A DNA stretch of 59,121 bases, the filler included. It is 5 parts of 5 records of this genome, joined end to end, with 100 filler letters (N's around TTAATTAATTAA, not from the genome) between each part and the next. Parts side by side here need not be neighbours in the genome. Positions count along the whole stretch, not along the records: positions 25,101 to 41,232 come from SRR31156797_2618; 4 more parts are not named here. The stretch is one strand, 5' to 3'. This document shows, one piece after another, positions 25,101 to 41,232 of the stretch. The first letter of the stretch is position 1; the number at the start of each line of letters is the position of its first letter. The notes below the pieces were generated by a model. That model had not been told where the DNA came from. It did not search any database and was given only the letters and a program-made list of their open reading frames with translations. The position numbers and the translations under genes were made by a program.

Positions 25101-25274
25101 CTTGCCGCAGCCCGACTCCCCCACCAGGCCGATGGTCTCGCCCCGGAAGATATCCAGATCCACGCCGTCCACGGCCTTCACATGGCCCACGGTCTTCTTA
25201 AACACTCCCTTCTTGACGGGAAAATGGGTCTTTACGCCTCTCAGTTTCAGGAGGACATCTCTGTTCTTATCCAT
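25101..25274 (-). CDS. oligopeptide-type ABC ATPase OppF/DppF-like (3'-truncated)
   Basis: [30 protein letters not shown]. Confidence 0.88.
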
Positions 25275-26272
25275 TATTTGACAACCTCCTTCCAGTTCCA
25301 GCAGCGCACCCGCTGCTCCCCGTCGACCGTAGTTTCATCGGGCATGCGGTCGCAGGCCTCCGTGCGGAAATCGCAGCGGGGAGCGAACTGACAGCCCTTG
25401 GGGCGATCGAAGGGATCGGGCGTATTGCCGCGGATGGGCTCGATCTCCTGCTCCTTGCCCTTACCCAGGATGGGGATGGACTCCAGCAGGGCCTTGGTAT
25501 AGGGATGGGCGGGATGACGCAGGACCTGGTCCTTTGTGCCTCCCTCCACGATATTTCCCATGTACATGACCACTACGTCATCGGCCATCTCGGCCACCAC
25601 GCCCATATCGTGTGTGATCATCATAACGGCGGTTTCGTTCTCTTCTTTGAGCTTGTCCATCAGCTCGAAGATCTGGGCCTGTATGGTCACGTCCAGCGCC
25701 GTTGTCGGCTCGTCGGCGATCAGCACCTTGGGATCGCAGCTCATGGCCATGGCGATCATGGCCCTCTGACGCATGCCTCCGGAAAACTGATGGGGGTACT
25801 CAGCAAAGCGCTGCTCCGGCAGGGGGATGCCCATCTGCTTCAGGAGTTCGATGGAGCGCTCCTTCGCCTCCCTGCGGCTCATCTTCGTATGGCAGAGCAG
25901 ATTCTCCATAATCTGGAAGCCCACGGTGTAGACCGGATTGAGGGCGGTCATGGGATCCTGAAAGATCATGGAGATATCCCCTCCCCGGAGCTGCCTCATA
26001 ACCTTTCCGTTCCGGGGCTGAGCGTCTATGCGAACGGGCCCTTTGTCTGAGTGGTAGACGATGGAGCTGTCCTCTATCCGGCTCAGGGTGGGGAGGAGCT
26101 GCATGATGGAGGAGGCGGTCACGCTCTTGCCGCAGCCCGACTCGCCCACCACGCAGAGGGTTCTCCCCTTCTTCACCGAGAAGGAGACTCCGTTCACCGC
26201 CTTGTTGCAGCGGTTATTGGTATAGAAAAAGGTCTTCAGATCCTTTACTTCGATAATTACATCATCTTTCAT
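25274..26272 (-). CDS. oligopeptide-type ABC ATPase OppD/DppD-like
   Basis: [51 protein letters not shown]. Confidence 0.95.
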
Positions 26273-26287
26273 TGCATCATCCTTTCC

Positions 26288-27202
26288 TCATCCCTGCTGA
26301 GAGGGGTCGGTGCTGTCCCGCAGGCCGTCTCCGATCAGGTTGACGCTGAGGACGAAGAGAGAGATCACGATCCCCACGGGAAGCCATATCCACCAGTTAT
26401 CCTTGAGAACCGTGATATCCTGGGCCACATTGAGGATGTTTCCCCATGTGGGGATATTCAGAGGAACCCCCAGCCCCAGAAAGCTCAACGAGGTCTCCTG
26501 AAGGATAAACATGGCCGTGCTGAGGGTGATGTTTACCATGATGGGGCCGAAGGCGTTGGGCAGCATATGCTTGTAACAGATCATCAGATCGTTAAGGCCG
26601 AAGGCCCTGAGGGCCTGGACGTACTCCTCTTCCCGTATGGAGAGCATTCTGGCTCTGGTCTGCCGGTAGATTCCTCCCCAGCCGGAGAGCATAAAGATAA
26701 AGATCAGATTCCAGACGCTCGGCCCCACGATGGAAACCAGCAGCAGGACCAATATGATCCGGGGAAAGGACATCAGCATCTCCGAGATCCTCATCGCCAG
26801 CATATCCAGCTTGCCGCCCTTGTAGCCGGCGTAGCAGCCCACGCCCACGCCGATCAGGGCGGAGCCGAGGGCCGATCCGAGGCCGACGAGGATGGAGATC
26901 CGTCCGCCGTAAAGGATCCGGGCGTAAACGTCCCGTCCCGTCTTGTCCGTTCCGAACAGATGCTCCGACGAGGGAGCCTGCAGCCTGTTGATCACGTCCA
27001 CCTTCATGGGATCGTGACGGGTGAACAGGGGGGCGAATACGGTGGCTATCATGATCAGGGTGAAGATAACCAGTCCGACCACCGCCAGGCGGTTGGACAG
27101 GAACTTCTTCAGGCTCCGGTTCATCGTATCGTGCTTCAGCTTGCCCGCCTCTTCAAGAGCCCGGAGGCGGTCCATCTTTCTATCCAGTTTTGATTTTCCC
27201 AT
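26288..27202 (-). CDS. ABC permease OppC/DppC-like
   Basis: HLFGTDKTGRD, HMLPN, LSFLGLG, GDGLRD. Confidence 0.93.
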   Translation of the reverse strand: MGKSKLDRKMDRLRALEEAGKLKHDTMNRSLKKFLSNRLAVVGLVIFTLIMIATVFAPLFTRHDPMKVDVINRLQAPSSEHLFGTDKTGRDVYARILYGGRISILVGLGSALGSALIGVGVGCYAGYKGGKLDMLAMRISEMLMSFPRIILVLLLVSIVGPSVWNLIFIFMLSGWGGIYRQTRARMLSIREEEYVQALRAFGLNDLMICYKHMLPNAFGPIMVNITLSTAMFILQETSLSFLGLGVPLNIPTWGNILNVAQDITVLKDNWWIWLPVGIVISLFVLSVNLIGDGLRDSTDPSQQG

Positions 27203-27211
27203 ATACTCTTC

Positions 27212-28171
27212 CTAATCCAGTTTGATTCTCGGGTCCAGCAGGGCCGTAAAGAGGTCGACCAGAAAGCTGGCCACCAGCACCGCCATCACCGTAAACAGGG
27301 CGATCATCATAACCAGGGGCAGATTCTGACACTGCACCGCCGCTACGAATTCGTTGCCCACGCCGGGCCACTGAAAGACCTTCTCGATGACAACCGTTCC
27401 GCCGATAAGCATGGGCAGCCGGAATCCCACAAGGACGATAACGGGGGTCAGGGCGACCCGGAAGCCATGGATCAGATTGACTCTCCACTCGGGGAGCCCC
27501 TTGCTGCGGGCGGTCTTGATGTAGTCCTTGTTCATGGCGTCCAGCATGCTGGCCCGGGAGTATCGCATCACGCCGGCCGTCAGGGTAAAGGCGAGAACCG
27601 AAGCGGGCAGGATGATGTGGGGAAAGCGGTCCCAGAATGTTTCCATCCCCGGAAGGAGACGCCCCCCGTGGGGCAGCCATTCCAGGTTGAGAGCGAAGAT
27701 AAGGATCGCCACCAGACCGAAGAAGAAGCGGGGAATGGAGACCCCTATCATCCCCAGGACGGTCAGGGCGGTATCCGTACCCGAACCCTTCTTCAGGGCG
27801 CTGACAGTCCCCAGTACGCTGCCGATCAGGGTGGAGAACAGCAGAGCCGTCAGCGACAGCTCCAGCGTGGCCGGCAGCCGGTCGAAGACGATGTCCTTGA
27901 TGGGGACGCCGCTGGCCAGGGAGTATCCGAAGTCTCCCCGGAGCACTCCTCCCGCCCATTTGAAATAACGGACGAAGAAGGGATCGTTCAGTCCCAGACT
28001 GTCGCGCAGTTCATCCAGCGCCTCGGGAGACAGTTCCGACAGCATGTCCGGGCTGATCATGTAGGACACGGCATCGCCCGGGGTCATCTCTATCCCCAGG
28101 AAGACCAGAAAACTGATGACCACAATCATGGGGATGATGATCAACAGCCGTCTGATGGTAAAGGTCAGCAT
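27212..28171 (-). CDS. ABC permease OppB/DppB-like
   Basis: PGD, GDFGYS, RLPATLEL, DYIKTARSKGL, EKVFQWPG, LDPRI; ATG at 28171. Confidence 0.93.
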   Translation of the reverse strand: MLTFTIRRLLIIIPMIVVISFLVFLGIEMTPGDAVSYMISPDMLSELSPEALDELRDSLGLNDPFFVRYFKWAGGVLRGDFGYSLASGVPIKDIVFDRLPATLELSLTALLFSTLIGSVLGTVSALKKGSGTDTALTVLGMIGVSIPRFFFGLVAILIFALNLEWLPHGGRLLPGMETFWDRFPHIILPASVLAFTLTAGVMRYSRASMLDAMNKDYIKTARSKGLPEWRVNLIHGFRVALTPVIVLVGFRLPMLIGGTVVIEKVFQWPGVGNEFVAAVQCQNLPLVMMIALFTVMAVLVASFLVDLFTALLDPRIKLD

Positions 28172-29217
28172 ACACAACTCCTTTTACCAAGCTCGATTGA
28201 CTTGTTTCTGATAAATTTTAGTATGTTCATGGCGTAGAGATCAAAACCGGCATCCGAGGGATGCAGTCTTCCATCTCCCATATAGAGTTCGGAATGGGGG
28301 AAAAGCGCATCCCCGTCCAGAACGGTGATTTCGGGAAAGCCTTCGGCCATATCCCTCATGGTCTGCCTGAGCCCCCCGAAGCTTCCGACTCTGGATATCA
28401 TGGCCTCGTCTATCCTCCAGATGGGAGTCATGGCCAGGACGGGGATACCGGGATGGATGCGGGTCAGGGTTTCAAAGAACTCCCGGCAGCGCTCCCTGAA
28501 CTCATCCGGAGTGGCCCGGAGGTTCCAGTCGTTGGTTCCGTAGGCGCATACGACCATATCGGGACGGTAGGGCATCCCCCCATCAAGGGATGAGGCGTCG
28601 AAATAGTAACCCGCCACACCCTGATTAAGCATTTCCGCCTCAAGCACGGCCGAGAGGAGGACCGGATAGGTGTGGGAGGGATAAAGGGCGTCCATCCCCT
28701 GGGTAATCGAGTCTCCGAGAAAGAGGACCCGGCTTCGATCCTCCCGGGACGTCGGCCGCAGAGAGGCTCGGTGATCGATCTGTATCTCCCCGATATAGAC
28801 CTCGCAGCCGTAGGGAAGCAAGACCGTCAGGCGGACGTATCCGTCGTCGTCCCGAGAAGCCTCTTTGAGGGAGATATTCAGCTGACCCGTATCGTCCTTG
28901 ATGCGCTCCGAGCCCAGGCGCCCCGTGAAGGCGCCGTTGATATAGATATCGAACCAGGCGTGGTCCCGCAGAGCGTATCCCAACTCATACCAGATCTTGA
29001 CAAAGCCCGAATCGGTCATCAGGTCCAGGGCGATGCCGCTGCAGCAGCGAGCCCTGTTCAGGTACTCTGTGTCGCTCGTCCAGTCGGCCCGAGCTCCCGC
29101 CTCCCGGTACACATTCAGTTGAGCCTTTGTAAAGCGGAGAGGCAGGCTCCACCTGTCCGAATGCTCCACATCCAGACAGCCCGTAAAAAAGGACTTGACG
29201 ATCTGTCCCGTCTTCAT
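28165..29217 (-). CDS. SGNH/GDSL esterase (candidate sialate O-acetylesterase)
   Basis: FLGDSITQG, NQGVAG, YGTNDW, DGRLHP blocks. Start MKTGQ (29217) is coupled to the sulfatase stop. The substrate is inferred from context only. Confidence 0.85.
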   Translation of the reverse strand: MKTGQIVKSFFTGCLDVEHSDRWSLPLRFTKAQLNVYREAGARADWTSDTEYLNRARCCSGIALDLMTDSGFVKIWYELGYALRDHAWFDIYINGAFTGRLGSERIKDDTGQLNISLKEASRDDDGYVRLTVLLPYGCEVYIGEIQIDHRASLRPTSREDRSRVLFLGDSITQGMDALYPSHTYPVLLSAVLEAEMLNQGVAGYYFDASSLDGGMPYRPDMVVCAYGTNDWNLRATPDEFRERCREFFETLTRIHPGIPVLAMTPIWRIDEAMISRVGSFGGLRQTMRDMAEGFPEITVLDGDALFPHSELYMGDGRLHPSDAGFDLYAMNILKFIRNKSIELGKRSCVC

Positions 29218-30659
29218 AAGCGCCAGCCCCTCTGGGCGCTCAGGTTGCGATCGGGAACCCATTGATACTCTCTGTCGGGAAGACCGACCAGTTTTCCGTT
29301 TCGCAGCCATTCCAGATCGCCGCCGTAAAGCTCTTTCACAAGAAGGGCCTTCAATTCCTCCAGCACCGGTGCATGGTCAGGATCGTCTGCCAGGTTGCGC
29401 AGTTCCCGGGGATCCGCCTCCAGATCGAAGAGGAGGCTTCTGTTACCTGCTGCGTAGTAGATCAGCTTGAAGCGGTCCTTTCGGATCATACGGGTGGCCA
29501 GCTCGTCTTCGTTATGCTCGCCATAGATAGACTCACGGGATTCGGGGCCCAGCATATTCCGTCCCTCCACGGTCTCAGGGACTTCGATGCCGCAGAGATC
29601 CAGGACTGTGGGCATCACGTCCCGAAGACAGACCAGATTGTCCCGCACCTTCCCTTCAGGAGACATCCCCGCAGGGGGAACCAGGATCATGGGGATGCGG
29701 GCGCTGGACTCGAGCATCTCTCTCTTGCCCCAGAGTCCGTGATCCCCCAGGGCGTCGCCGTGATCGCAGGTGAAGAGGATCAGGGTGTTATCCAGCAGTC
29801 CCTCCTCCCAGAGGGTGCCGATCAACAGACGGATCTGATGATCTATATAGCTGCACTGGGCGTAGAATCCCCGTCTGGCCCGCAGATCGCCGTCCGGTTC
29901 GCTTGGGGTTCTCTTCCTGTTCATCTGGTTCTTAAGGCTGTAGGGAAGTGTCTCGGGATCGAGGGCCCAATCCCCTATCACCGGCCCGTCGATCGCCGCG
30001 TCACAGTACATATCCCAGTAGTCCCGGGGGGGCGTGATGGGGGGATGGGGGGCGATATAGGAACAGTACCAGAAGCCCGGCTTGTCGGGATTCCGCCTCT
30101 GGATGGCCCGGCACATGTTCTTCGTGGTCCAGTGAGTGGGATGGAGCTCCTCATCCAGATGCCAGGGTCTGACGCTGTACTGATTGACGCCCATACCGTG
30201 GGCCATCTCCGCTCCGGCATGGCCCTTGTCGGCCAGGAAGATCTCGTAGTCGTCCTTGAGCATTCCCAGATGATGGCGGCCCTCCTCGCAGATCAGGGCC
30301 TCATCGAAGCCGATCCTGTCCCGCTGGGGATAGACATGGAGCTTTCCCACCGCCGAGCTCTGATAACCGGCCCGTCTGAAGGTTTCGGCCATGGTGGGGA
30401 TGTCCCCTGGCATCCTGAGGGTCTGATTGAAGATCCTGTCCCCGTGAGTCCGTGCGGAGGTTCCGGTCATAAGACTACGCCTTGCCGGAATACAGGTGGG
30501 GTGGCAGGAGTAGGCGTTGCTGAACCTGACTCCGTTGTCGCAGAGCTGGTCCAGGGTCGGGGTATGGATATGGGCATGTCCCTCGCTTCCCAGGAGCCTG
30601 CCGGGCCAGTGATCCACGCAGATCATAAGCACGTTGGTTTTGGATTTTTCCGTCTTCAT
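29214..30659 (-). CDS. formylglycine-dependent sulfatase (Cys-type)
   Basis: CIPARRSLMTG, GKLH, APHPP, CDHGD..GDHGLWGK. Confidence 0.92.
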   Translation of the reverse strand: MKTEKSKTNVLMICVDHWPGRLLGSEGHAHIHTPTLDQLCDNGVRFSNAYSCHPTCIPARRSLMTGTSARTHGDRIFNQTLRMPGDIPTMAETFRRAGYQSSAVGKLHVYPQRDRIGFDEALICEEGRHHLGMLKDDYEIFLADKGHAGAEMAHGMGVNQYSVRPWHLDEELHPTHWTTKNMCRAIQRRNPDKPGFWYCSYIAPHPPITPPRDYWDMYCDAAIDGPVIGDWALDPETLPYSLKNQMNRKRTPSEPDGDLRARRGFYAQCSYIDHQIRLLIGTLWEEGLLDNTLILFTCDHGDALGDHGLWGKREMLESSARIPMILVPPAGMSPEGKVRDNLVCLRDVMPTVLDLCGIEVPETVEGRNMLGPESRESIYGEHNEDELATRMIRKDRFKLIYYAAGNRSLLFDLEADPRELRNLADDPDHAPVLEELKALLVKELYGGDLEWLRNGKLVGLPDREYQWVPDRNLSAQRGWRL

Positions 30660-30774
30660 TATGAATTGTCCTCGGAGCCTTATAACAGGGCCTTTAAGAA
30701 GGGGCAGGCCGCTCGCTAACGGGTCGTCCCGCCCCCGATTTTTTTACATTAAATCAGCATTCTGGTAAGAACCG

Positions 30775-32472
30775 TCAGTTCTTCTTGGGGTACTTGTTGA
30801 AGTAGATCAGCCGGGTATAGCGGATGTCTACGGGATGAACCGTCATGTTGTCCATCTCTTCGATGGCCTTTACGTCGGCCACGACCTTGGTGAAGGAGTA
30901 GTCGATCTTTCCGGCGTCCGCATTGATCACCAGATTGGGATCTCCGTCCTGGGAGGGGCTCATCATGATCTTCTCGATGTTTCCGCTTCCGCTCTTGTCC
31001 CAGTATCCCTTATAGGGGACCAGGGCGCAGTAGTCGTTCATGTTCACATCGTCGATGATAAAGGGACCCGTTCCCACGGGATGCTGCCAGAAGGGATCCT
31101 GCTGGGATTTCAGGGGATCCGAGTTCTTCAGAAGATGACTGGGGAGGGGAGGCCACTGGGAGAATGTGAACAGGGCGTCGGGATCGAGCTCTGCAAAGCT
31201 GATGGTGATCCTGTCGCCATCGACCTGGATTCCGCTGACAGAGTCGGCGCTGCCGTCCTTATAGGCCTTCGCGCCCTCGATGGAGGCATAGGTCTTCTCC
31301 ACAATGGGATTGATTCCGGGAACTTTCAGGGTGTACTCGACGGTAAAGACCACGTCCTCGGCGGTGAAGGGAGTTCCGTCGTGCCAGGTCACGTCGCTGC
31401 GAAGGTCCATGGTCAGGGTCAGGCCGTCCTCACTCATGGTATACTCCTCGGCCAGCTGTCCCTGAGAGGGGGTGAGAGAGCCGTCGGCGGTGATCAGGCG
31501 GTCGAAGAGGAACTTGTTGGTCATCATCAGTCCGGGGTTGACGAAGGTGCTCTGGAAGTACTCCATGGGCCCGGTGTTTACGTGAAGCACGCGCTCGCCC
31601 TTCTCGTCGGGTTCCACGTCCCAGTCAATGATGCGCCAGTTATAGGCGAACTGCTCATTGCCGTAGGGGATTCCTTTTCTGTCCACCCGGTCGCTTTCCA
31701 CGACGAAGACCTGCTGATAGTAGAAGGGCATGGCGTAGAGGGCCTTGTTCTCATACTCGGAGAGGGCGTGGTAGGCTTCCATCTGCTTGGCTACGTCCGC
31801 TGTGGCGCGGGTGGCCTTCACAAGGCGTTCATATTCGGCATCGGCAGGGGTATGGGAGTTGTTCTGAGCACCGGGGGCGAAGCGGTTGAAGAATCCTCCC
31901 AGCACGGCGGAACCGATGGCGCCGTATGCCATATCCCAGGTCACCTCGGCGGGTCCGTTCTCTATATCGGCGGGAGCGACCCAGAGCTGACCCGCGATAT
32001 CGCCGGTGACCTGACGGAAGGTCATCTTCATACCCACGTCAGCCAGATAGGCCTGCATGACGGTCATAAGGTCCACCGTGAGCTGATCGCCATAGTAATA
32101 GGCCACGTCCAGCACGTAATCGGGATCCCAGTTCGCCGCCTTCAGAAGGGCGCGCGCCTTGTCGGGATCGTACTTATAATAATCCAGTCCGTCGGCCTTC
32201 CAGGGGCCGTTCTCGATCAGGCTGTTGGCGGGAAGGGCCTTGCCTTCGAAGAGACTGCCGGTGACAGCATCGGCGTCGATGGCATAGGCGATGGCCTGCC
32301 TGACCCGGATATCGCTTAAGGGGTTGCTGTTGACAGGCCCCACCTGTTCCAGGGCGTAGTCCATATTCCCCGTATCAGTCGACACGACCTCGGCTTCCTT
32401 TTTGCAGCCGGCGACGAATAGTACTGAAGCCAGTACCGTAAGCACCAATAGGGTTCGATACACACTTTTCAT
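30775..32472 (-). CDS. family 5 (OppA/DppA-like) ABC substrate-binding lipoprotein, apparently circularly permuted
   Basis: Lipobox VAGC. PLSDIRVRQAIAYAID and YDPDKARALL come before FDRL..LAE..DGLTLT..LR..VTWHDGTPFTAEDV and PVGTGPF. Confidence 0.9.
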   Translation of the reverse strand: MKSVYRTLLVLTVLASVLFVAGCKKEAEVVSTDTGNMDYALEQVGPVNSNPLSDIRVRQAIAYAIDADAVTGSLFEGKALPANSLIENGPWKADGLDYYKYDPDKARALLKAANWDPDYVLDVAYYYGDQLTVDLMTVMQAYLADVGMKMTFRQVTGDIAGQLWVAPADIENGPAEVTWDMAYGAIGSAVLGGFFNRFAPGAQNNSHTPADAEYERLVKATRATADVAKQMEAYHALSEYENKALYAMPFYYQQVFVVESDRVDRKGIPYGNEQFAYNWRIIDWDVEPDEKGERVLHVNTGPMEYFQSTFVNPGLMMTNKFLFDRLITADGSLTPSQGQLAEEYTMSEDGLTLTMDLRSDVTWHDGTPFTAEDVVFTVEYTLKVPGINPIVEKTYASIEGAKAYKDGSADSVSGIQVDGDRITISFAELDPDALFTFSQWPPLPSHLLKNSDPLKSQQDPFWQHPVGTGPFIIDDVNMNDYCALVPYKGYWDKSGSGNIEKIMMSPSQDGDPNLVINADAGKIDYSFTKVVADVKAIEEMDNMTVHPVDIRYTRLIYFNKYPKKN

Positions 32473-32578
32473 AGAATCCTCCTGTTCTCATTTATCAGAC
32501 GAAGGCAGGGCGTCCTGCTTCGATCCGATTCTATTTTTCTTATCTCCGCCGCAGAACGGCAAAGCAAAAATACCAGAA

Positions 32579-34066
32579 TCAGCGCGCGCCGGGCCTCTCT
32601 TCAAAGAAAGTCGTGGCGTCCACCTGTCCCGATCCGCTGCGCCAATTCCCGAAAAACTTGCTGACGCAGTCCCTCAGTGGATCTCCCGTTTCCGCGGTCA
32701 ACCGCATCAGACGCCGCCGCATTTCATCAAGCTTTTCCGCAGATTCGCCGCTCCGCAGAAGATTGCGCATCTCCCCCGGATCACTATTCAGATCGTAAAG
32801 CTCATCGTAATCTCCGGGCGTGAAGATAAGCTTCCATCCGTCATCACTGACAAGGGCTCTCTGGGAGTAGAGGAACCTCAGGCCGTGGAACTCCAGAAGC
32901 AGCTCCTCTCTGCGGCTCCGACCCTCGAGATCCTCCAGAGCATGTGCCAGGGAGATACCGTCGAGGCCCTCCGGGAGATCGATGCCGCAGAGCTCCATCA
33001 GGGTGGGCATGATGTCCATATTCATGGCCAGATCCTCCCGGGCGCCGGCCTTGAAACGGCCCTTTCCGTAGAAGACCAGAGGGATGTGCTGAGCCTCCTC
33101 ATAGAGGAGTCCCTTGTCCATCAGCCCCCCGTGGGAGCCGGTCATATCCCCGTGATCTGTTGAAAACACCACCACCGTGTCCTCGGCCAGGCCGCTCTCT
33201 TCCAGCCAGTCCATCATACGGCCTAGCTCGTAGTCCAGCATGGCGCTGCAGTCGTAGTAGCGGGCCGTGATCTCGGCGGCCTTCTTCCAGTCGGAAGGAT
33301 GGTCCTTATAGAAGTCATCCCTTTCCCTGCGGATGCGTCGGGGCTTCTCAGAGAGATCGTCGCCAAAGCTGGGCCAGGGCTCGATCGACTCCGGATCGTG
33401 CATGCCGTAGAACTCGTCCGAAGGCATATGGGGGCCGTGGGGACCCCAGAACTGACAGGTCAGGAAAAAGGGTGTGCCTTCGTCCCGATACCGGCTCATA
33501 AGCTCCTTGCTCTTCTCCACCAGATAGTGTCCGGGGGTGGATTCCTGGGGACCTCCCCATCTCCCGGCGACAAGGGTCTGGCCGTCGGGATTGAGAAAGA
33601 TCTCGGGATGCGGTTCGTAGGCCAGTCCCCGCTCCTCCAGATAGGAACGGAAGCCCTCGTCCTCTCGGATGTTCCCGTAGCCCGGCAGGTTCATACCCTC
33701 GAAGCCGTAGTCTCCGGGGCCCATATTCGTTCCCACATGCCACTTCCCCGTATAGGCGCAGCGGTATCCGGCATCCTGAAAGGAGCTGTGGAGCAGTTCC
33801 TCAGGACGAGGGAGCTCGGCTGCCAGAGAGTGGTACATATCGCAATTGGTACCCATGCCGTGACGGAAGGCGTACTGTCCGGTGAACATGGACGCCCTGG
33901 CGGGGGAGCAGAGGGTGCAGGGCGTATAGGCCCTCTCGAAACGGACGCCCTCCCGGGCCAGACGATCGATATTCGGGGTCCGGCAGTGGAAATTTCCGTT
34001 ATGCGAAAGGGTGTCGAAACGAAGCTGATCCGCCCCGATCCACAGCACATTGGGACGACTCTTCAT
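32579..34066 (-). CDS. formylglycine-dependent sulfatase (Cys-type)
   Basis: PNVLWIGADQLR, CSPARASMFTG, GKWH, GPHGP, TDHGD; ATG overlaps the nanA stop (TGATG). Confidence 0.93.
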   Translation of the reverse strand: MKSRPNVLWIGADQLRFDTLSHNGNFHCRTPNIDRLAREGVRFERAYTPCTLCSPARASMFTGQYAFRHGMGTNCDMYHSLAAELPRPEELLHSSFQDAGYRCAYTGKWHVGTNMGPGDYGFEGMNLPGYGNIREDEGFRSYLEERGLAYEPHPEIFLNPDGQTLVAGRWGGPQESTPGHYLVEKSKELMSRYRDEGTPFFLTCQFWGPHGPHMPSDEFYGMHDPESIEPWPSFGDDLSEKPRRIRRERDDFYKDHPSDWKKAAEITARYYDCSAMLDYELGRMMDWLEESGLAEDTVVVFSTDHGDMTGSHGGLMDKGLLYEEAQHIPLVFYGKGRFKAGAREDLAMNMDIMPTLMELCGIDLPEGLDGISLAHALEDLEGRSRREELLLEFHGLRFLYSQRALVSDDGWKLIFTPGDYDELYDLNSDPGEMRNLLRSGESAEKLDEMRRRLMRLTAETGDPLRDCVSKFFGNWRSGSGQVDATTFFEERPGAR

Positions 34067-34992
34067 CAAAGCGTCTCCAGGAAGTCGATTCCTTCAATCT
34101 TGTATTCTTCTTTTATCCTGTAGAAATCTCTTTTCAGTTGATCCTCTTCGGCGGATGTCAGGTTGATAAAGGGGCTGCGGCAGTAACCCGCGTCAATGCC
34201 CATCCAGCTGAGGGCGCGCTTCATCATGCCCACGTAGTTCCCTCTCGTGCAGTGAACGATCAGGGCGTTGGCCATGGCCTGGATCTCTTCCGCCCTCTTG
34301 TAATCACCCGATTTCATAGCGTCGTAAATCCTGATGAAGACCTCGGGCATCAGGTTGTAAAAGGAGCCGATCAGACCGTCGGCCCCGAAGGAAAGGCCCG
34401 AAAGAGACATCTCATCGCAGCCCGAGTAGATCATAAAATCTTTTCCGATCTCCTCCTTCATCCTCATGATCTCAAAGTGGCTTGTGGCGGTATACTTTAC
34501 CCCGTCCACGCCTTCGATATCGGCAAATCTCTTGAGCTGATCATAACCCACCAGACCGGCCAGGGGGATATTGTAGACCACCATGGGGATCTCAACAGAA
34601 TTCGTTATCTCTTTATAGTATTTAAAGATACTATCATCTGTAAATTTCCAGTAGAAGGGAGGAACAGAGGAGACCGCATCGGCCCCGGCGCTCTCGGCCT
34701 GCCGGGCCAGATCGATGGATACCTTTGTTCCGATGGCACCGACATGAACGATCACGGGAATACGTCCGGCCACCTGATCGATCACAATGGTAACGACTCG
34801 CTTGCGCTCCTCGGGACTCATCAGAAAACCTTCTCCGGTGCTTCCGGTCAGATACAGACCGGTAACGCCCTTCTTAATCAGATGCTCAACCAGTTGCCGC
34901 ATCCCCTCTTCGTGCAGAGATTCATCCTCTTTGAAAGGGGTAATCAACGCCGGGATGACGCCTTTTATATCCTTAAGACTTGTTCTTGACAT
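34066..34992 (-). CDS. nanA: N-acetylneuraminate lyase-like (DHDPS/NanA family)
   Basis: GLYLTGSTGEGF, VPPFY, VYNIP, GVKYT Schiff-base Lys, GLIGSFYN; an AGE epimerase lies in the same cluster. Confidence 0.8.
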   Translation of the reverse strand: MSRTSLKDIKGVIPALITPFKEDESLHEEGMRQLVEHLIKKGVTGLYLTGSTGEGFLMSPEERKRVVTIVIDQVAGRIPVIVHVGAIGTKVSIDLARQAESAGADAVSSVPPFYWKFTDDSIFKYYKEITNSVEIPMVVYNIPLAGLVGYDQLKRFADIEGVDGVKYTATSHFEIMRMKEEIGKDFMIYSGCDEMSLSGLSFGADGLIGSFYNLMPEVFIRIYDAMKSGDYKRAEEIQAMANALIVHCTRGNYVGMMKRALSWMGIDAGYCRSPFINLTSAEEDQLKRDFYRIKEEYKIEGIDFLETL

Positions 34993-35049
34993 ATATCATT
35001 CTCCTGATTTTCGGGCCTCAGCCCTTCCGGAAAGCCTCTCTTTCCAAAC

Positions 35050-35134
35050 TTGTATACCAGAATAACTCTCTTTTTTCCGATTTGTCAATAAATAATATTG
35101 ATCTTTCCATATCTTCGTATACAATTGGATACAT
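35050..35134. promoter_or_regulatory. divergent promoter region with three GntR/FadR-like boxes
   Basis: TTGTATACCA (35050-35059), TCGTATACAA (35115-35124), TTGGATACAT (35125-35134). Minus-strand TTGACA at 35088-35083; plus-strand TTGATC-16-TACAAT at 35098-35125. Confidence 0.6.
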
Positions 35135-35156
35135 TCATATTCCAAGGAACTCTACG

Positions 35157-36608
35157 ATGAAGAAAAGAAACGTACTGCTGATAATCTCCGACCAACACAG
35201 GCAGGAGGCCATGGGCTGCCGCGGAAACGGCATCGTCCGGACACCTCATATGGACAGACTCTTCTCACGGGGCGTGCTGTTCGACAGAGCCCTCTCGCCC
35301 GCCCCCCTCTGCGGCCCCGCCCGCTGCTCCATCTTTTCGGGGCTCTACCCCCATCAGGCCGTCGGGATACTGCAGCCCGAAGCTCTGGGAGCCCGGGACG
35401 AGCTGGAATGCGGAGTGGAAACGGATATGATGCTCAACACCAGCTCCCTGAGAGAGCCCGACCATCTGACACGCCCTTTCAAAGAGGACGGCTACTACAC
35501 GGCCTATGCGGGGAAATGGCATCTGGGCAATGACATCCTCCCCGATTGGTTTGAGAACTGTTGTGGAGAGGATAACAAGCAGTACTGCGACTGGCTGGAG
35601 AAAGAAGGGCTGCCTCCCACGGGATGGTCTCTCAAGGATTCTGAAGTACGAAGTGAGAGGATTCCACCCATGTCCATACCCCGGACAAAGGCAAGCCCCG
35701 TCACAGGCGAACAGTATAACGACGCCTGGATCGCCGATCTGGCCCTGAACTATATGAGGGAGAGACCGAAGGACGTCCCCTTCTTTATCAGCTGCGGCTT
35801 CAACGGCCCCCATCCCCCCTTTATGATCCCCGAGCCCTGGTACTCCATGTATGATCCCGAAACCATACCCGAGCCCGCGAACTTCCATCCCGGCAAGGGA
35901 GAGCCCGCGTGCAAGGGGAACAGTTTCTACAGGCAATTGTGGAAGGATCACGGCGAGGACTGGGCCGCCTGGAAGAAGAGCATGGCCGTCTACTACGGAT
36001 TCGTCTCCTACATAGACCATCAGATAGGACGGCTCACAGCCGAGTTGGAGGAGCAGGGAGCGCTGGACGACACCCTGATTATCTATACCAGCGATCACGG
36101 CGAGATGCTGGGCAGCCACGGTCTCTGGCACAAGATGCAGGCCTACGAAGAGTCCCTGAGAGTTCCCCTCCTGTTCAGCGCGCCCTGGCTGCCACAGGGC
36201 AGGCACAGCCAGGCGGGGGCCTCTCTTCTGGATATTCCCTCCACCATCCTCTCCCAGAGCGGCTACCCCGTCCCCGATGTCTACGAGGGAGAGGATCTCA
36301 GCCCCGCACTGGCCGATCCCGAAGCCGAGGCGCCCGTCCGATACCTCTTCTCCGAGCAGAAGCCTCTGGGCCGCTTTCACAAGGAATCGGACTGGCGGAT
36401 GATCACGGATAATAGCTACAAGCTGATATGGAACAGGGACGATATCTTTGAACTGTACGATCTGCAATGCGATCCTTCGGAGCTTGTCAATCTTGCGGGA
36501 AAAGAAGAGATCCTGCCGATAGAGGCCGAGCTGAAAAGAAGACTGGAAACCTGGATGGAAAATACCGGTGACGACCTGATCCGGGACTACAGAGGAGGGG
36601 CGTCATGA
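35157..36608 (+). CDS. formylglycine-dependent sulfatase (Cys-type)
   Basis: Start MKKRNVLLIISDQHR (35157), CGPARCSIFSG, GKWH, GPHPP, SDHGEMLGSHG. Confidence 0.93.
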   Translation: MKKRNVLLIISDQHRQEAMGCRGNGIVRTPHMDRLFSRGVLFDRALSPAPLCGPARCSIFSGLYPHQAVGILQPEALGARDELECGVETDMMLNTSSLREPDHLTRPFKEDGYYTAYAGKWHLGNDILPDWFENCCGEDNKQYCDWLEKEGLPPTGWSLKDSEVRSERIPPMSIPRTKASPVTGEQYNDAWIADLALNYMRERPKDVPFFISCGFNGPHPPFMIPEPWYSMYDPETIPEPANFHPGKGEPACKGNSFYRQLWKDHGEDWAAWKKSMAVYYGFVSYIDHQIGRLTAELEEQGALDDTLIIYTSDHGEMLGSHGLWHKMQAYEESLRVPLLFSAPWLPQGRHSQAGASLLDIPSTILSQSGYPVPDVYEGEDLSPALADPEAEAPVRYLFSEQKPLGRFHKESDWRMITDNSYKLIWNRDDIFELYDLQCDPSELVNLAGKEEILPIEAELKRRLETWMENTGDDLIRDYRGGAS

Positions 36609-37300
36609 AGATCGAGACTATGGAACAGAAAAAAACATCCTATGAACACCTGAAGGAGTTGATCCTCGAGTACAGGATCGAACGCCATCATCGTTTCACC
36701 GAGGCCCAGCTGGCGGAGATTCTGAACACATCCCGCATCCCCGTACGGGAAGCGGTGCAGAAGCTGCTGCTGGAAGGCTATATGGAACGCCATGAGAAGA
36801 GCGGTTACCGGATCACAGAGTTCTCCCCTCAGGACGTGATCGATATCTACAACTACAGAGAGGCTCTGGACGGTATGCTGACCAGGCTCTTCACAGAGAG
36901 GATGGACGCCACTCAGCTTTTCTGCCTGGAGACCAATCTGAAGTCTATGGAAGAGGCCCTGGATATACCCGAAGAGAGATTCGACCAGACCCGATTCTCC
37001 CGCATGGACCAGGAGTTCCACCGCATCATCGCCCGGGGCGCCCACAATCGCCTGATGGAACAGCAGCATGAGCTGATCCTGGAGAAGATCATCTATATAG
37101 CGGGACGAAACCACAGGGATTTCAAGGACAGCCGGGAGGACCTGATCAACTATGAGAGTTTCAAAGACTCCTACCATCAGCATAAGGAGATATTCGAGGC
37201 CGTTCGCAAACGCGATCCCGATGGGGCCGAACGCCTGGCCAGGCTCTCGGTCCGCAACGGACTGAAAAAGAACCTGAAGATCATGTACGGACAGTACTGA
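36605..37300 (+). CDS. GntR family regulator (FCD domain)
   Basis: EAQLAEILNTSRIPVREA HTH; DQEFHRII..AHN; HKEIFEAV..RDPD. Confidence 0.92.
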   Translation: MKIETMEQKKTSYEHLKELILEYRIERHHRFTEAQLAEILNTSRIPVREAVQKLLLEGYMERHEKSGYRITEFSPQDVIDIYNYREALDGMLTRLFTERMDATQLFCLETNLKSMEEALDIPEERFDQTRFSRMDQEFHRIIARGAHNRLMEQQHELILEKIIYIAGRNHRDFKDSREDLINYESFKDSYHQHKEIFEAVRKRDPDGAERLARLSVRNGLKKNLKIMYGQY

Positions 37301-37311
37301 AGGACAAGATT

Positions 37312-39009
37312 ATGACAAAGAACGAACAACAGGCCATGTCCTCTTCCCAGAGCCATCTCTACAGGATGGAACAGCTGATGAAGAAAGACGAAAGGCCCAA
37401 TATCCTGCTGATCATGACCGACCAGCAGAGGGCCGACAGCGTGGGCGCCTGGGGCAGCCCCTTTATGAAAACACCCCATATGGACCGCCTGGCCGCGGAA
37501 GGACGGCTCTACCGGAACGCCTACTCCCCCAACCCGATCTGCATGCCCGCCAGGCATAATCTGCTCACCGGGCTTACCGCCAGATACCACGGCTACCCGG
37601 ATAACTGCTGGGGCTTCGGCATGCCCCCGGGACTCCCCACCTTCCCCGAAATCCTCTCGGATAACGGCTACGAAACCCGGACAATAGGCAAGAACCACTT
37701 CTACCCTCCCCGCCGGCACAACGGTTACCTCAATATGGAGCTGATGCAGGAGGTCCCCGCCTTCCGGGAGCAGGATGACTACCTCATGTACCTGAAGGAT
37801 CAGGGCCTGGGCCACGTCTCCAACATCCACGGCGTCAGAAATCTGCTCTATATGGTGCCCCAGCAGTCCCAGATCCCCACAGAGCACCACGGCACCAACT
37901 GGGCGGCAGACAGAGCCATAGACTTTATCACGACCAACAACGGACGCCATCCCTGGATGCTCAAACTGGGTTGGATAGCGCCCCATCCCCCCTTCGACGT
38001 TCCCCCCGAATACGCGGATATGTACAAGGATGCGGAGTTACCCGAGCCCCTGAAATCGGAAACGGTAACCAGCCCGCTGGCCGAAGAGAACAGGATGCTG
38101 GGGGATCTGCCGAACGAGAAATACATCCGGCGGATGCGTGAGCTCTATTACGCCGCCGTCTCCCATATAGACGACAACCTGGGCCGCGTCCTCGCCGGCC
38201 TGGAGGAAACGGGACAGCTGGATAATACGCTGATCATCTTCACCAGCGACCACGGAGAGATGCTGGGAGACCACGGGACCTACCAGAAGTGGTTGCCCTA
38301 CGACAGCTGCGCCCGCATCCCCCTGATCATCCGCTATCCCGGAAAGGTAAAAGCGGGAGAGGTCAGCGAGGAACTGGTGGATCTGAACGATCTCTACCCC
38401 ACCATCCTCGAGGCGGCGGGGCTGGACTACCCGGGCGACCATAAGCTGCCCGGCGAGAGCCTTATCGCCGATTCCCCGGAAAAAGACCGGCGCTACCAGT
38501 ATATAGAGTACTCCACGGGCTCCCGCCGCTGGATCAGCCTGAGGGACGAGAGATACAAATACAACTACTACTTCGGCGGCGGTCGGGAAGAGCTCTTCGA
38601 CCTTGCAGTAGATCCGGGGGAGTGCCGGAATCTGATGGACACGGCTCCCGGCGCGTCCCTTCCCGAAGGCCTGCAGGCCCACAGAAACCGGCTACGCGCA
38701 GCCCTGATCCGCTATGAAGAGACCTGGGGACTAACGGATAGCGTGGTCGATGGCGATCTGGAGATCAGGGCCCCGTACGAACCCAAGCCCTACCGCAACC
38801 AAGCCTTCCCGGTCTTTCAGAACAAGCTCACCGATCCCGGGGAACGTGAGGCCATGAACGCTCATCTTGATGAGGTCCTGGAGGTCAGCCGCAGGGAGGC
38901 GCTCGTTCGTTTCCGGGATCTGGACCTGGCATGCTGGCAAAAAAACGGCGGTTACAGCGACAAAAAGATAGAAGAACTATTACAAAAGGAAGAGGTATTG
39001 AAAAGATGA
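37312..39009 (+). CDS. formylglycine-dependent sulfatase (Cys-type)
   Basis: PNILLIMTDQQR, CMPARHNLLTG, GKNH, APHPP, SDHGEMLGDHG; the true start may be slightly downstream. Confidence 0.93.
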   Translation: MTKNEQQAMSSSQSHLYRMEQLMKKDERPNILLIMTDQQRADSVGAWGSPFMKTPHMDRLAAEGRLYRNAYSPNPICMPARHNLLTGLTARYHGYPDNCWGFGMPPGLPTFPEILSDNGYETRTIGKNHFYPPRRHNGYLNMELMQEVPAFREQDDYLMYLKDQGLGHVSNIHGVRNLLYMVPQQSQIPTEHHGTNWAADRAIDFITTNNGRHPWMLKLGWIAPHPPFDVPPEYADMYKDAELPEPLKSETVTSPLAEENRMLGDLPNEKYIRRMRELYYAAVSHIDDNLGRVLAGLEETGQLDNTLIIFTSDHGEMLGDHGTYQKWLPYDSCARIPLIIRYPGKVKAGEVSEELVDLNDLYPTILEAAGLDYPGDHKLPGESLIADSPEKDRRYQYIEYSTGSRRWISLRDERYKYNYYFGGGREELFDLAVDPGECRNLMDTAPGASLPEGLQAHRNRLRAALIRYEETWGLTDSVVDGDLEIRAPYEPKPYRNQAFPVFQNKLTDPGEREAMNAHLDEVLEVSRREALVRFRDLDLACWQKNGGYSDKKIEELLQKEEVLKR

Positions 39010-40067
39010 CATCCAAAGAGCGCGTATTGAATACCCTGGATCACAAAGAGACGGACCGAGTGCCCCTGATGTACAGGGACGTTCCCGAGGTCAGAAACCG
39101 GATAAAACATGATCTTCAGATACGAAGCGATGAGGAGCTCTTCCGGCATTTCGGTATAGATTTCCGCTGGGTAGGGCCCCGTTGGACAGGCCCTGAACTG
39201 ATGATCTCCGAAACAGAGAAGAAGGACCACTGGGGAGTGGAGTGGATCTACACAGAGTTTGAGGACGGCGCCGGCTACTGGAACGAGAAGTCCTGCCCCA
39301 TGCGGGAGATGGAGAGTGCCCGGGAGGCGGAGGCCTGGCCCGTCCCCGAACTGGACTGGTGGGACTTCTCAAGCCTCAGCGCCGACTGCGACGCCTACTC
39401 AGACTACGCCGTGATGACCGCCCCTGGCTACAGCTCTCCGGGGATCTTCCAGTTTCCCATCCAGTCCCTGATCGGCGTGGAGCGCAGCCTGATGGACATG
39501 TACGTCAATCCCGATTTCCTCAACGCCCTGATAAAAAGGATTCAGAGTTTTCAGCTTCCCTATGTTCGGAAGATGATGGAAGCGGCGGAAGGGAAGATCG
39601 ATTTCTTCCGCCTGGGCGACGACTTCGGCACCCAGCAGAGCCTCCTGATGGGCCCAGATCCCTGGCGGGAGTTTATCGGTCCCGCCCTGAAGGCCATGGC
39701 CGACATCGCCAAGGAACAGGGAGCCCGCTACTACCAGCACAGCTGCGGCGCCGTCCGCCCCCTGATCCCCGACTTCATAGAAATAGGAGTCGACGTGCTC
39801 GACCCCCTGCAGGTCCTGGCGGAGGGGATGGTCCCCTCGGAACTGAAGGCTGAGTTCGGAGACAGGATCTGCTTCTCCGGAGGCGTGGACGAGCAGGAGC
39901 TCCTCCCTCACGGCAAGCCTGAAGAGGTGAAGGAAGCTGTCTGGTGTCTGCTGGATGATATGAGGGGAGGAGGCTTTATTCTGGGCCCCACCCACAACTT
40001 TCAGGCCGACATCCCCACCGACAATATCGTGGCCATGTACGAGGCCGCTGCGGAATGGAAAGGATAA
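39006..40067 (+). CDS. uroporphyrinogen decarboxylase / MtaA-CmuA methyltransferase superfamily protein
   Basis: MTSKERV..DRVP, DHWG, GDDFGTQ..LLMGP, HSCG, GGVDEQ..LP.G, GPTHNFQ; start at 39006. Confidence 0.85.
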   Translation: MTSKERVLNTLDHKETDRVPLMYRDVPEVRNRIKHDLQIRSDEELFRHFGIDFRWVGPRWTGPELMISETEKKDHWGVEWIYTEFEDGAGYWNEKSCPMREMESAREAEAWPVPELDWWDFSSLSADCDAYSDYAVMTAPGYSSPGIFQFPIQSLIGVERSLMDMYVNPDFLNALIKRIQSFQLPYVRKMMEAAEGKIDFFRLGDDFGTQQSLLMGPDPWREFIGPALKAMADIAKEQGARYYQHSCGAVRPLIPDFIEIGVDVLDPLQVLAEGMVPSELKAEFGDRICFSGGVDEQELLPHGKPEEVKEAVWCLLDDMRGGGFILGPTHNFQADIPTDNIVAMYEAAAEWKG

Positions 40068-40071
40068 GAAG

Positions 40072-41232
40072 ATGACGAAAGAAAGAATCAGAGAGCTGAA
40101 AGATTTTTATTACAACGAGATGGTTAACGACGTAATCCCCTTCTGGCTGGACAACGCCCTGGACCGGGAGTACGGCGGCTATATGGACTTCCTGGACAGA
40201 ACGGGCAAGCCCCTGTCCACCGATAAGGGGGGCTGGGTACAGGGACGTACGGTCTGGGTCTTTTCCACCCTCTACAGGGATGTGGAAGAGCGGAAGGAGT
40301 GGTACGAAGCCGCCGAGCTGGGGGTGCGTTTTATCAGGGAGAAACTCCGGCGCAAAGAGGACGGACGGGTCTACTTCGAGGTAAGCCGTGAGGGAGAGCC
40401 CCTGGTGATGCGCCGCTACCTCTTCTCCGAGGTCTTCGCCTGTATCGGTCTGGCCGCCTGGTCGGAGATCTCCGGCGACAAAGAGGCCCTGGAAGAGGCC
40501 CGGGAGCTCCTTGCCCTGATCGACAGGCTCTCCGAATCGGGGGAACTGGAATCCAAAATAGATCCTGCCACGCGTCTTATGCGGGGCCACTCCATGACCA
40601 TGATGATGATCAGCCTCTGCCAGATCCTCCGCCGGGCAGATCCCGCGGGAGAGACCCACTATACCGAGAGGATAGACAGGCAGATCGACGAACTCTTCCG
40701 CTACTTCGTGAAGCCCGACAGAAAGGTTCTCCTGGAGACAGTCGGCCCCGGGGGAGAGATCACAGAGGGCCCCGAAGGACGCTGCATCAATCCCGGCCAT
40801 GCCATAGAAACCGCCTGGTTTATCTTCGATGAGGCCGAGTACAGGGGCGACAAGGCTCTGCTGGAAAAGGCCCTGCCCATCATGAACTGGTCCATAGAAA
40901 GGGGCTGGGACAAAGAGTACGGCGGGATCTTCTCCTTCCTGGACGCCGACGGAAAGCATCCCGCTCAGGTGGAGTGGGACATGAAGTACTGGTGGCCCCA
41001 CTGCGAGGCCCTGATCGCCTTCCTCCAGGCCTACGATATGACGGGAGAGGAGCGTTACGAGAAGTGGTTTGAAAGGATCCACGACTACACATGGAAGCGC
41101 TTCCCCGACCGGGAGCACGGAGAGTGGTTCGGCTACCTCCGCCGGGACGGATCGGTGCAGGTGGAGCTGAAGGGCAACCACTTCAAGGGGCCCTTCCATA
41201 TCCCCCGTCTTCTGATAAGATGCTATAAGCGA
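40072..41232 (+). CDS. N-acylglucosamine 2-epimerase (AGE family), 3'-truncated
   Basis: PFW..D.EYGG, DKGGWVQGR, NPGHAIE..WF, KYWWPHCE, GEWFGYL, KGPFHIPR. Confidence 0.92.

Follow-up and report, generated by a model that had tools for sequence, protein, structure and literature searches.

A candidate locus for import and cytoplasmic trimming of decorated sialic acids, with four leaderless sulfatases and a URO-D/MtaA-fold protein

The Bacteroides/Tannerella route of sialic acid utilisation consists of a NanL/NanA lyase, the N-acylglucosamine 2-epimerase (AGE)-type enzyme NanE and a transporter, and SatABCD of Haemophilus ducreyi is a sialic acid importer of the family-5 ATP-binding cassette (ABC) type. 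Corrinoid-dependent three-component methyltransferases are known as MtaABC of methanogens, as the O-demethylases of acetogens and Desulfitobacterium, and as CmuA. Elements related to both kinds of system stand side by side at positions 25101-41232 of a 59,121-nt stretch of joined draft contigs (the window), where a NanA-like lyase and an AGE-family epimerase are encoded together with an Opp-type importer, four sulfatases without signal peptides, an SGNH hydrolase and a protein of the uroporphyrinogen decarboxylase (URO-D)/MtaA fold. Sialic acids bear acetyl, methyl and sulfate groups, and the enzymes handling decorations beyond acetylation are described as largely unknown in PMC9304399. In Bifidobacterium breve UCC2003, according to PMC7326374, an intracellular sulfatase cluster serves the use of imported N-acetylglucosamine (GlcNAc)-6-sulfate.

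The locus is read here as one that would import a decorated sialic acid, trim it in the cytoplasm and hand it to the NanA/AGE route, a full model that rests on sequence comparison and is given a probability of about 0.5. The sialic acid link, the cytoplasmic site and the methyl-transfer idea are backed by comparative evidence. What was observed directly is the gene content, the lack of leaders in the sulfatases, the catalytic motifs, the synteny across phyla and the association with corrinoid proteins, and from these we infer every substrate and the order of desulfation, deacetylation and demethylation. An earlier note on this DNA had proposed an intracellular system stripping acetyl, sulfate and possibly methyl groups from imported sialic acids or sulfated amino sugars; comparative support was gained for the sialic acid assignment, the intracellular sulfatases and the methyl-transfer role, and none for the substrates or for typing the sulfatases as sialate-specific. 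It had also not recognised the pathway as a described one, which agrees with searches of open-access articles and bioRxiv: no paper was found that speaks of a "sialate sulfatase" or a "sialic acid sulfatase" or that brings together uroporphyrinogen decarboxylase, polysaccharide utilisation and sulfatase, only irrelevant ones with uroporphyrinogen decarboxylase and sialic acid, and, among the matches listed, nothing on corrinoid-dependent demethylation of methylated sugars.

Gene content and arrangement of the contig

The window is made of five contigs separated by spacers of the form N44-TTAATTAATTAA-N44 at 15215-15314, 25001-25100, 41233-41332 and 53699-53798, and as it is joined from contigs, genes across the spacers are not genomic neighbours. 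The locus is exactly one contig of the draft assembly (16,132 bp), and both oppF and the AGE gene are truncated because the contig ends cut them. Pfam and NCBIfam scans and the translations confirmed two divergent operons, with the gene content and order given in the earlier note. The minus strand encodes, in order, the NanA-like lyase, sulf1, a family-5 solute-binding protein (SBP), sulf2, the SGNH hydrolase, oppB, oppC, oppD and 58 codons of oppF, and the plus strand encodes sulf3, a GntR/FCD regulator, sulf4, the URO-D-like protein and AGE. The many overlapping stop and start codons noticed before were likewise recovered from the coordinates, with four 4-nt overlaps (nanA/sulf1, sulf2/SGNH, sulf3/gntR and sulf4/URO-D) and a 1-nt overlap (oppD/oppF). 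The starts of sulf3, the SGNH gene and the URO-D-like gene were set by the N-termini of orthologues; the longest open reading frames (ORFs) over-extend 5'. The features are as follows.

25101..25274, minus strand: oppF-type ATPase, N-terminal 58 codons; Walker-A stretch GESGCGK; relatives have a second ATPase gene after oppD
25274..26272, minus strand: oppD-type ABC ATPase; PF00005 and PF08352
26288..27202, minus strand: oppC-type permease; PF00528 and PF12911
27212..28177, minus strand: oppB-type permease; PF00528 and PF19300
28165..29217, minus strand: SGNH/GDSL hydrolase, candidate O-acetyl esterase; PF13472, GDSIT and GTND blocks
29214..30659, minus strand: leaderless Cys-type S1 sulfatase sulf2, CIPAR; PF00884 and PF16347
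30775..32472, minus strand: family-5 solute-binding lipoprotein, circularly permuted; lipobox VAGC, alignment with DppA
32579..34069, minus strand: leaderless Cys-type S1 sulfatase sulf1, CSPAR; Pfam, motif and N-terminus
34066..34992, minus strand: NanA-like N-acetylneuraminate-lyase-type aldolase; NF003164, PDB matches and motifs
34993..35156, no strand: divergent promoter region with candidate GntR/FCD operator; GTATAC boxes
35157..36608, plus strand: leaderless Cys-type S1 sulfatase sulf3, CGPAR; Pfam, motif and N-terminus
36605..37300, plus strand: GntR/FCD transcription regulator; PF00392 and PF07729
37312..39009, plus strand: leaderless Cys-type S1 sulfatase sulf4, CMPAR; Pfam and motif, 4-nt overlap with the URO-D-like gene
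39006..40067, plus strand: URO-D/MtaA-fold protein, candidate substrate:corrinoid methyltransferase; PF01208
40072..41232, plus strand: AGE-family N-acylglucosamine 2-epimerase, 3' end cut; PF07221

In a coral metagenome run of another study (X2), one contig of 10,597 nt spans 27556-38154 with 193 differences and 2 gaps, and other contigs of the run cover the remainder of the locus. The same arrangement in this independent contig shows that the gene order is not an assembly artefact. Near-identical DNA occurs in the coral metagenome and also in a microbial-mat library; the organism is a marine spirochaete, probably host- or mat-associated, and the echinoderm source mentioned at the outset found no support in these matches. 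Compared with the window, the coral strain carries single-base indels at 28296, 30739 and 39398/39401, the first of which falls in the final ~44 codons of the SGNH gene, where it would frameshift one of the two assemblies, and the last of which is a self-compensating pair in the URO-D-like gene. Contigs of an RNA library (X3) that fall on oppB/C, SGNH, sulf2, sulf3 and sulf4 were not counted as evidence of expression or habitat, given a word share of 0.07 and possible DNA carry-over.

Conservation of the neighbourhood and its enzymes

A profile built from 20 homologues of the URO-D-like protein led to 49 loci in reference genomes (loci and genomes carry L and G numbers below), spanning Spirochaetota, Bacteroidota (Prolixibacteraceae and relatives), Planctomycetota, Victivallales and Kiritimatiellales, at least four phyla in total. 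The 526 ORFs called in these loci were clustered, the representatives and leftovers were scanned with Pfam, and a sialic-acid-type marker was found in 36 of the 49 loci. The synteny survey suggested in the earlier note thus sets the URO-D-like family within sialic-acid-type loci. BNR_2 sialidase-like proteins were found in 21 loci (42 ORFs), NanA-like lyases in 19, AGE in 15, NanM-SSF fusions in 5, NanM in 3, SGNH-SASA proteins in 4 and a second dihydrodipicolinate synthase (DHDPS) subfamily in 5; 13 loci hold both NanA-like and AGE proteins, and 20 of the 49 hold sulfatases. The 13 loci without a marker by clustering include L039, where Pfam detected an additional DHDPS domain, five fragments of 3-6 kb (L003, L024, L027, L042 and L044) and the doubtful match L048. 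Genes for NanA-like, URO-D-like and AGE proteins are directly adjacent in four Planctomycetota loci (L008, L020, L022 and L046) and in the spirochaete locus L002. A quick maximum-likelihood tree placed the window protein in an orthologue clade of 38 rows (SH-aLRT 99), 27 of which lie no more than 5 kb from a marker, and at least three other URO-D paralogue clades in the same tree also occur in sialic-type loci. Fused enzymes were seen in related loci as well, namely a sulfatase with a BNR_2 sialidase-like domain (1239 aa, L014 11373-15092), SGNH with BNR_2 (599 aa, L011 12484-14283) and BNR_2 with SASA (1546 aa, L010 5272-9912); such fusions physically join desulfation or deacetylation with sialidase-like domains.

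All four sulfatases carry the C-x-P-A-R motif (CSPAR, CIPAR, CGPAR and CMPAR) and match PF00884 with 135-188 bits. Their lack of signal peptides, already stated from the first reading, is borne out by domains that begin 4-30 residues from the start codon and by maximal 12-residue Kyte-Doolittle means of 0.09-0.83, demonstrating the absence of a hydrophobic leader. A start further upstream for sulf3, which would include a hydrophobic stretch, was rejected, as the longer frame crosses the AT-rich promoter with the GTATAC boxes and the orthologues start at MKK...NILL. Leaderless orthologues were also found for sulf4 (L001, L032 and L044), sulf1 (L002) and sulf3 (L040), and the sulfatases of related Bacteroidota and Planctomycetes-Verrucomicrobia-Chlamydiae (PVC)-type loci mostly have signal-peptide-like N-termini. 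The pairwise identity of sulf1-4 is only 27-34%, indicating old paralogues. In L001 and L032 the URO-D orthologue is immediately preceded by an orthologue of sulf4 (71% identical), one of sulf1 (60%) adjoins nanA in L002, and one of sulf3 (52%, leaderless) stands beside a URO-D paralogue in L040. Because the nanA/sulf1 and sulf4/URO-D pairs overlap by 4 nt and are kept in spirochaete relatives, the sulfatases seem tied to the pathway.

The best solved relative of sulf4 is 7oz8, deposited as a choline-sulfatase (E 2.3e-76), that of sulf1 is the exo-2S-iota-carrageenan sulfatase 6pt4 (E 4.2e-49), and the solved relatives of both include the N-acetylglucosamine-6-sulfatase 5g2v and the mucin-desulfating sulfatase 7p24 (E 1e-37 to 1e-50). 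In anaerobes, Cys-type sulfatases need the anaerobic sulfatase-maturating enzyme (anSME), which scored above cut-off in the relatives G001, G128, G003 (Puteibacter) and G005 but not in the 2-Mb G002. On the contig at 1-15214 two more leaderless Cys-type sulfatases (4469-5866 and 13701-15170) lie near a TctA transporter, a sugar ABC system, two xylose-isomerase-like TIM-barrel proteins, a ROK kinase and a ROK-type regulator. Such a grouping of leaderless sulfatases with sugar-uptake and ROK genes on a second contig suggests that this bin generally removes sulfate from imported sugars inside the cell.

The lyase was placed by ranked PDB matches and NCBIfam scores, which set it nearer to characterised NanA than to DapA or 2-keto-3-deoxygluconate (KDG) aldolases, the comparison proposed earlier. 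Its 33 best solved matches are all N-acetylneuraminate lyases (E 2e-53 to 2.7e-44), the first DHDPS following at 7.9e-40, and the NanA models NF003164 (270.9 bits) and TIGR00683 (234.4 bits) score above dapA (179.3 bits). The motifs GSTGE, YNIP, GVKYTA, GCDEM and GSFYN align with those of H. influenzae NanA (1f5z); in this enzyme class they comprise the Schiff-base Lys, the Tyr, and the GSTGE and DE sugar-binding motifs. The AGE protein matches PF07221 with 193.9 bits and NF052547 with 378 bits against a cut-off of 600, the gene being 3'-truncated, and these scores are well over those of the sibling models for cellobiose epimerase (106 bits) and mannose isomerase (39.6 bits). Orthologues 67-71% identical occur in L001, L002 and L038.

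The regulator matches the NanR model weakly (45.7 bits, cut-off 260) and has orthologues 48-54% identical in L001, L002, L003 and L032. In the 164-nt divergent spacer, GTATAC stands at 35051-35056 and 35117-35122 and GGATAC at 35127-35132; the spacer thereby holds two of the four GTATAC copies of the contig, together with the palindrome GTATACAATTGGATAC. Related boxes, TTGTATAC...GTCAAG and GGTATACAAT, are found upstream of the orthologous genes in L001, L002, L003 and L032, in promoter regions at 8135-8400, 8444-8665, 200-470 and 5677-5890, respectively. The GTATAC boxes are a candidate operator of the GntR/FCD protein, and appear to resemble the GGTATA repeats of E. coli NanR.

Orthologues of oppD (66-74% identical) were found in L001, L032, L039, L043, L047, L049 and L066, and orthologues of the SBP in the nanA/AGE/URO-D loci L001, L032, L036, L039, L043 and L047. 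The SBP matches DppA 299-491 with its residues 47-238 and DppA 36-236 with its residues 300-494; by this alignment the protein is circularly permuted relative to DppA/OppA, with the C-terminal lobe first. Its homologues form at least 120 clusters with 88-100% length coverage and 49-99% identity, only two covering 49%, and the relatives include Oceanispirochaeta (74%), Dethiosulfatibacter and Sphaerochaeta. The structural model has a pLDDT of 83.8 and is confident except for the signal and two loops, and solved family-5 proteins match it over only 230-300 columns (TMq 0.29-0.38), none of them being colinear with it. An assembly artefact as the source of the permutation was rejected, as the coral contig carries the SBP and at least 120 homologue clusters exist; these and the confident model mark the permutation as a family trait rather than an error. 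The term "circular permutation" occurred in none of the papers listed on OppA-type SBPs.

The SGNH hydrolase matches PF13472 on residues 197-356 of the long ORF, preceded by an N-terminal domain of ~190 residues without known family. PF13472 was its only Pfam match, with none to SASA (PF03629); a structure search found no solved relative, and the 49 URO-D loci hold no orthologue.

The URO-D-like protein and its corrinoid association

Of 6,461 candidates scored, 2,924 are homologues of the URO-D-like protein (P0001, 353 aa) at E<=0.001, the best being 55-75% identical to it. The protein has no hemE (TIGR01464) match at E<=0.001, a model that the MtaA-like proteins of L005 do match, and HemE identity was rejected on this ground and on the sugar-catabolism context. 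The predicted structure (pLDDT 93.5) is a URO-D/MtaA barrel, for which Foldseek gave the lowest E to uroporphyrinogen decarboxylases (1.7e-13) and the best TM-score to the methylcobamide:coenzyme M methyltransferase MtaA (4ay7/4ay8, TMq 0.69, 13-17% identity). H245-x-C247 is invariant in 20/20 sequences and aligns with the HxC of MtaA-like proteins, where the H-x-C ... C site presumably supplies the zinc ligands; one paralogue clade has H-x-D instead. All orthologues are leaderless (consensus MTxKERVL), so the enzyme would act in the cytoplasm on a transported substrate. A PDB search with the family profile returned a single weak match uninformative on function, CdmB of Acetobacterium (9rui, E 0.0018), and in the ESM Atlas the protein matched only clusters with generic URO-D names.

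The clearest corrinoid link is found in L005, from an isolate of Puteibacter caeruleilacunae. There, the gene directly after that of a 63% identical orthologue encodes a corrinoid protein (TIGR02370, 176 bits), and next in line are an MtaA/CmuA-type methyltransferase (183 bits), a CobW GTPase and a Met_synt_B12 reactivation domain; further on lie a sulfatase, a second URO-D paralogue and an SGNH-SASA esterase. Judged by gene content, this is a three-component corrinoid methyl-transfer layout in which the orthologue takes the position of the substrate-specific methyltransferase (MT1).

Elsewhere the association is one of genomes, and four of the five genomes behind the loci encode a stand-alone corrinoid protein. 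G001, the closest relative, has a 69% identical orthologue in the same locus type, and its corrinoid hub (L058, G001:C5:70000-89999, 5422-14366) encodes CobW, an MtaA-type second methyltransferase (MT2), PocR/AraC, a corrinoid protein, the reductive activator RACo, CobU and CobT but lacks an MT1. Searches of G001 and of G003 (Puteibacter) turned up no gene of the MttB family and no MtaB, which leaves the URO-D-like proteins as the only recognisable MT1 candidates in these two. Among 151 Spirochaetia genomes, a stand-alone corrinoid protein (open frame <450 aa) is encoded by 47 of the 54 that have a URO-D-like protein (E<=1e-40) and by 21 of the 97 that do not, and among 121 genomes of the order of G004 the counts are 7/10 and 17/111; the resulting odds ratios of 24 (Fisher p 2.4e-15) and 12.9 (Fisher p 4e-4) ignore phylogeny, genome size and completeness. 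The 68 corrinoid-bearing Spirochaetia genomes were counted among the matches listed, the 57 weakest matches lying outside the count, and true orthologues (>=50% identity) occur in only ~4 of the 151, the others being paralogues at 30-40%.

Corrinoid hubs that combine a corrinoid protein and an MtaA-type methyltransferase with CobW and RACo were seen in sugar-degrading Spirochaetota and Prolixibacteraceae, a second such hub locus being L059 (G004:C2, 9839-18066). The methanol methyltransferase MtaB beside the hubs of G004 and G128 suggests, from gene content, methanol use outside methanogens and acetogens.

Two further parts of the window stand apart from these subjects. Positions 16001-20000 have a low GC content (0.38-0.43 versus ~0.58 elsewhere), contain a YkuD fragment as well as several ORFs that match no Pfam family, and may be foreign DNA or a mis-binned contig. 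At 50433-52757 lies an ORF of 774 aa with no Pfam match at E<=0.001.

The proposed route, its rivals and known systems

In the proposed route, the GntR/FCD regulator would control the locus, and a decorated sialic acid (nonulosonate) would enter through the Opp/Dpp-type ABC system with its permuted lipoprotein SBP. Once matured by a cytoplasmic anSME whose gene lies elsewhere, the four leaderless Cys-type S1 sulfatases would remove sulfate esters, and the SGNH hydrolase would take off O-acetyl groups. The URO-D/MtaA-fold enzyme would then demethylate the sugar as MT1 and load a corrinoid protein, which would be encoded at a separate hub locus alongside an MtaA-type MT2, CobW and a reductive activator. 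NanA would cleave the trimmed acid to pyruvate and N-acylmannosamine, and AGE would epimerise the latter to N-acylglucosamine. The most specific part of this proposal, a hub-and-spoke corrinoid O-demethylation of sialic acids under anoxia by the URO-D/MtaA-fold family, together with leaderless sialate O-sulfatases, is put forward tentatively, the odds running somewhat against it. The URO-D paralogue clades may act on other methylated sugars too.

A number of observations weigh against the reading of the locus as a decorated sialic acid pathway, beginning with the fact that none of its enzymes has a demonstrated substrate. The lyase is under the NCBIfam equivalog cut-offs (NF003164 270.9 versus 281, TIGR00683 234.4 versus 382), AGE is likewise below its own (378 versus 600), and by Pfam scans the 16.1-kb contig holds no corrinoid protein, MT2 or activator; sialidase, kinase, NagA and NagB are absent from it as well. 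Close relatives have one or two sulfatases at the equivalent locus, not four, and 7oz8 and 6pt4 have no link to sialic acid and indicate no substrate. The transporter orthologue of G090 stands in a locus with URO-D paralogues, not next to nanA. For the methyl-transfer step, the URO-D-like protein scores 63.6 bits against the MtaA/CmuA model TIGR01463 (cut-off 235.4), and the invariant His330 stands where MtaA-type enzymes have the third Cys, so that the presumed metal ligand differs. A corrinoid protein is beside the orthologue in only one of the 49 loci (L005), and in the Spirochaetia same-contig pairs compared, the URO-D-like and corrinoid genes are never within 20 kb, a distance unlike that of canonical MT1-corrinoid pairs. 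Stand-alone corrinoid proteins are missing from 7/54 and 3/10 of the URO-D-like-bearing genomes in the two samples, and in G004 and G128 the corrinoid protein is beside MtaB and may therefore serve methanol.

Two other explanations concern the substrate. The contig could be a mixed locus for mucin or glycan fragments, in which the importer and sulfatases deal with sulfated amino sugars or small oligosaccharides, e.g., GlcNAc-6-sulfate-type compounds from host mucus, NanA and AGE serve unsulfated sialic acid, and there is no sialate sulfatase. Coral mucus is rich in sulfated glycoproteins and near-identical DNA comes from a coral metagenome, 5g2v and 7p24 are among the solved relatives of sulf4 and sulf1, and two more leaderless sulfatases lie by sugar-uptake and ROK genes on another contig. 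However, the 4-nt overlaps of nanA/sulf1 and sulf4/URO-D, conserved in relatives, the lack of any glycosidase on the 16.1-kb contig and the sulfatases in 20 of 49 otherwise sialic-type URO-D loci speak against it, the last count being tempered by the general richness of PVC and Bacteroidota genomes in sulfatases. The B. breve sulfatase acting intracellularly on imported GlcNAc-6-sulfate (PMC7326374) is a precedent in its favour, as it is for the cytoplasmic desulfation in the proposed route, and the explanation is judged somewhat unlikely. The substrate could instead be another 2-keto-3-deoxy sugar acid, such as 2-keto-3-deoxynononic acid (Kdn), 2-keto-3-deoxyoctonic acid (Kdo) or a nonulosonate of bacteria or algae like legionaminic or pseudaminic acid, possibly methylated or sulfated, and not N-acetyl- or N-glycolylneuraminic acid (Neu5Ac/Neu5Gc). 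This would fit the low identity of the Planctomycetota and Bacteroidota NanA-like proteins to the window lyase (23-36%), the second DHDPS subfamily in 5 loci, the sub-cut-off scores of NanA and AGE, and the up to 7 BNR_2 paralogues per Planctomycetota or Bacteroidota locus, as expected for a complex microbial or algal polymer. It appears improbable. The window lyase keeps the residues aligned with the sugar-binding motifs of H. influenzae NanA and the NanM, NanM-SSF, SASA and DUF386/YhcH neighbours are of Neu5Ac-system types.

The third explanation leaves the sialic acid context in place and denies the methyl transfer: the URO-D-like protein would belong to the metal-dependent enzymes of the URO-D/MetE superfamily and act, e.g., on an anhydro, unsaturated or lactone nonulosonate, or be a decarboxylase, and its co-occurrence with corrinoid proteins would reflect a shared lifestyle. 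The direct NanA-URO-D-AGE adjacency suggests a core step rather than trimming, corrinoid genes are not beside 48 of the 49 orthologues, and the co-occurrence figures take no account of phylogeny; the MtaA/CmuA score far under cut-off, the differing ligand position and the H-x-D of one paralogue clade point the same way. On the other side, the Puteibacter orthologue heads a complete corrinoid methyl-transfer set, the hub of G001 is without MT1 and neither G001 nor G003 yielded MttB or MtaB, the fold is nearest to MtaA by TM-score, and hemE is not matched. A non-methyltransferase role is regarded as unlikely.

If the corrinoid O-demethylation and the sialate desulfation are true, they would provide the first corrinoid-dependent carbohydrate O-demethylase and the first sialate O-sulfatases. 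Confirmation of these activities would extend sialic acid catabolism by new steps, connect the breakdown of glycans with cobamide and one-carbon metabolism in host mucus and anoxic sediments, and supply enzymes for the analysis of modified sialoglycans. The locus and the URO-D-like family of ~2,900 members offer candidate genes for a sialate sulfatase and a corrinoid sugar O-demethylase; the family is associated with loci rich in sialidases in marine Spirochaetota, Bacteroidota, Planctomycetota and Verrucomicrobiota-related phyla, and the cultured Puteibacter caeruleilacunae is available as an organism for testing the URO-D-like and sulfatase candidates.

As in the Bacteroides/Tannerella route, the lyase and AGE are encoded in one regulated locus with an importer, and NanM, SASA and sialidase occur in related loci. 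Different from that route, the importer is of the Opp-type ABC class with a permuted SBP instead of a major facilitator (MFS) or sodium:solute symporter (SSF) carrier. The locus further encodes an SGNH hydrolase, a URO-D/MtaA-fold enzyme and the four cytoplasmic sulfatases, and the contig holds no kinase. The importer shares with H. ducreyi SatABCD the peptide-type family-5 ABC system proposed for sialic acid, and its SBP is circularly permuted relative to DppA/OppA. An SGNH-fold esterase in a sialic acid locus is also known from the sialate O-acetylesterases NanS of E. coli and EstA of Bacteroides; the hydrolase here differs from them in that it does not match SASA, carries an unrelated N-terminal domain, and has neither a solved relative nor an orthologue in the 49 loci.

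With the B. breve UCC2003 cluster (PMC7326374), the locus has in common a leaderless sulfatase for an imported sulfated monosaccharide and maturation of the anSME type, both predicted here, and the four divergent sulfatases are in contrast coupled to NanA, AGE and the URO-D-like enzyme. The likeness to corrinoid three-component systems lies in the URO-D/MtaA fold and the HxC motif and, in relatives, in the corrinoid protein, MtaA-type MT2, activation by RACo or Met_synt_B12, and CobW. Unlike those systems, the enzyme has His instead of Cys as third ligand and scores far below the family cut-offs, the genes for the candidate MT1 are scattered over sugar loci at a distance from the corrinoid hub, and its presumed substrate is an alkyl methyl ether on a sugar acid rather than an aryl methyl ether, methanol or methylamine.

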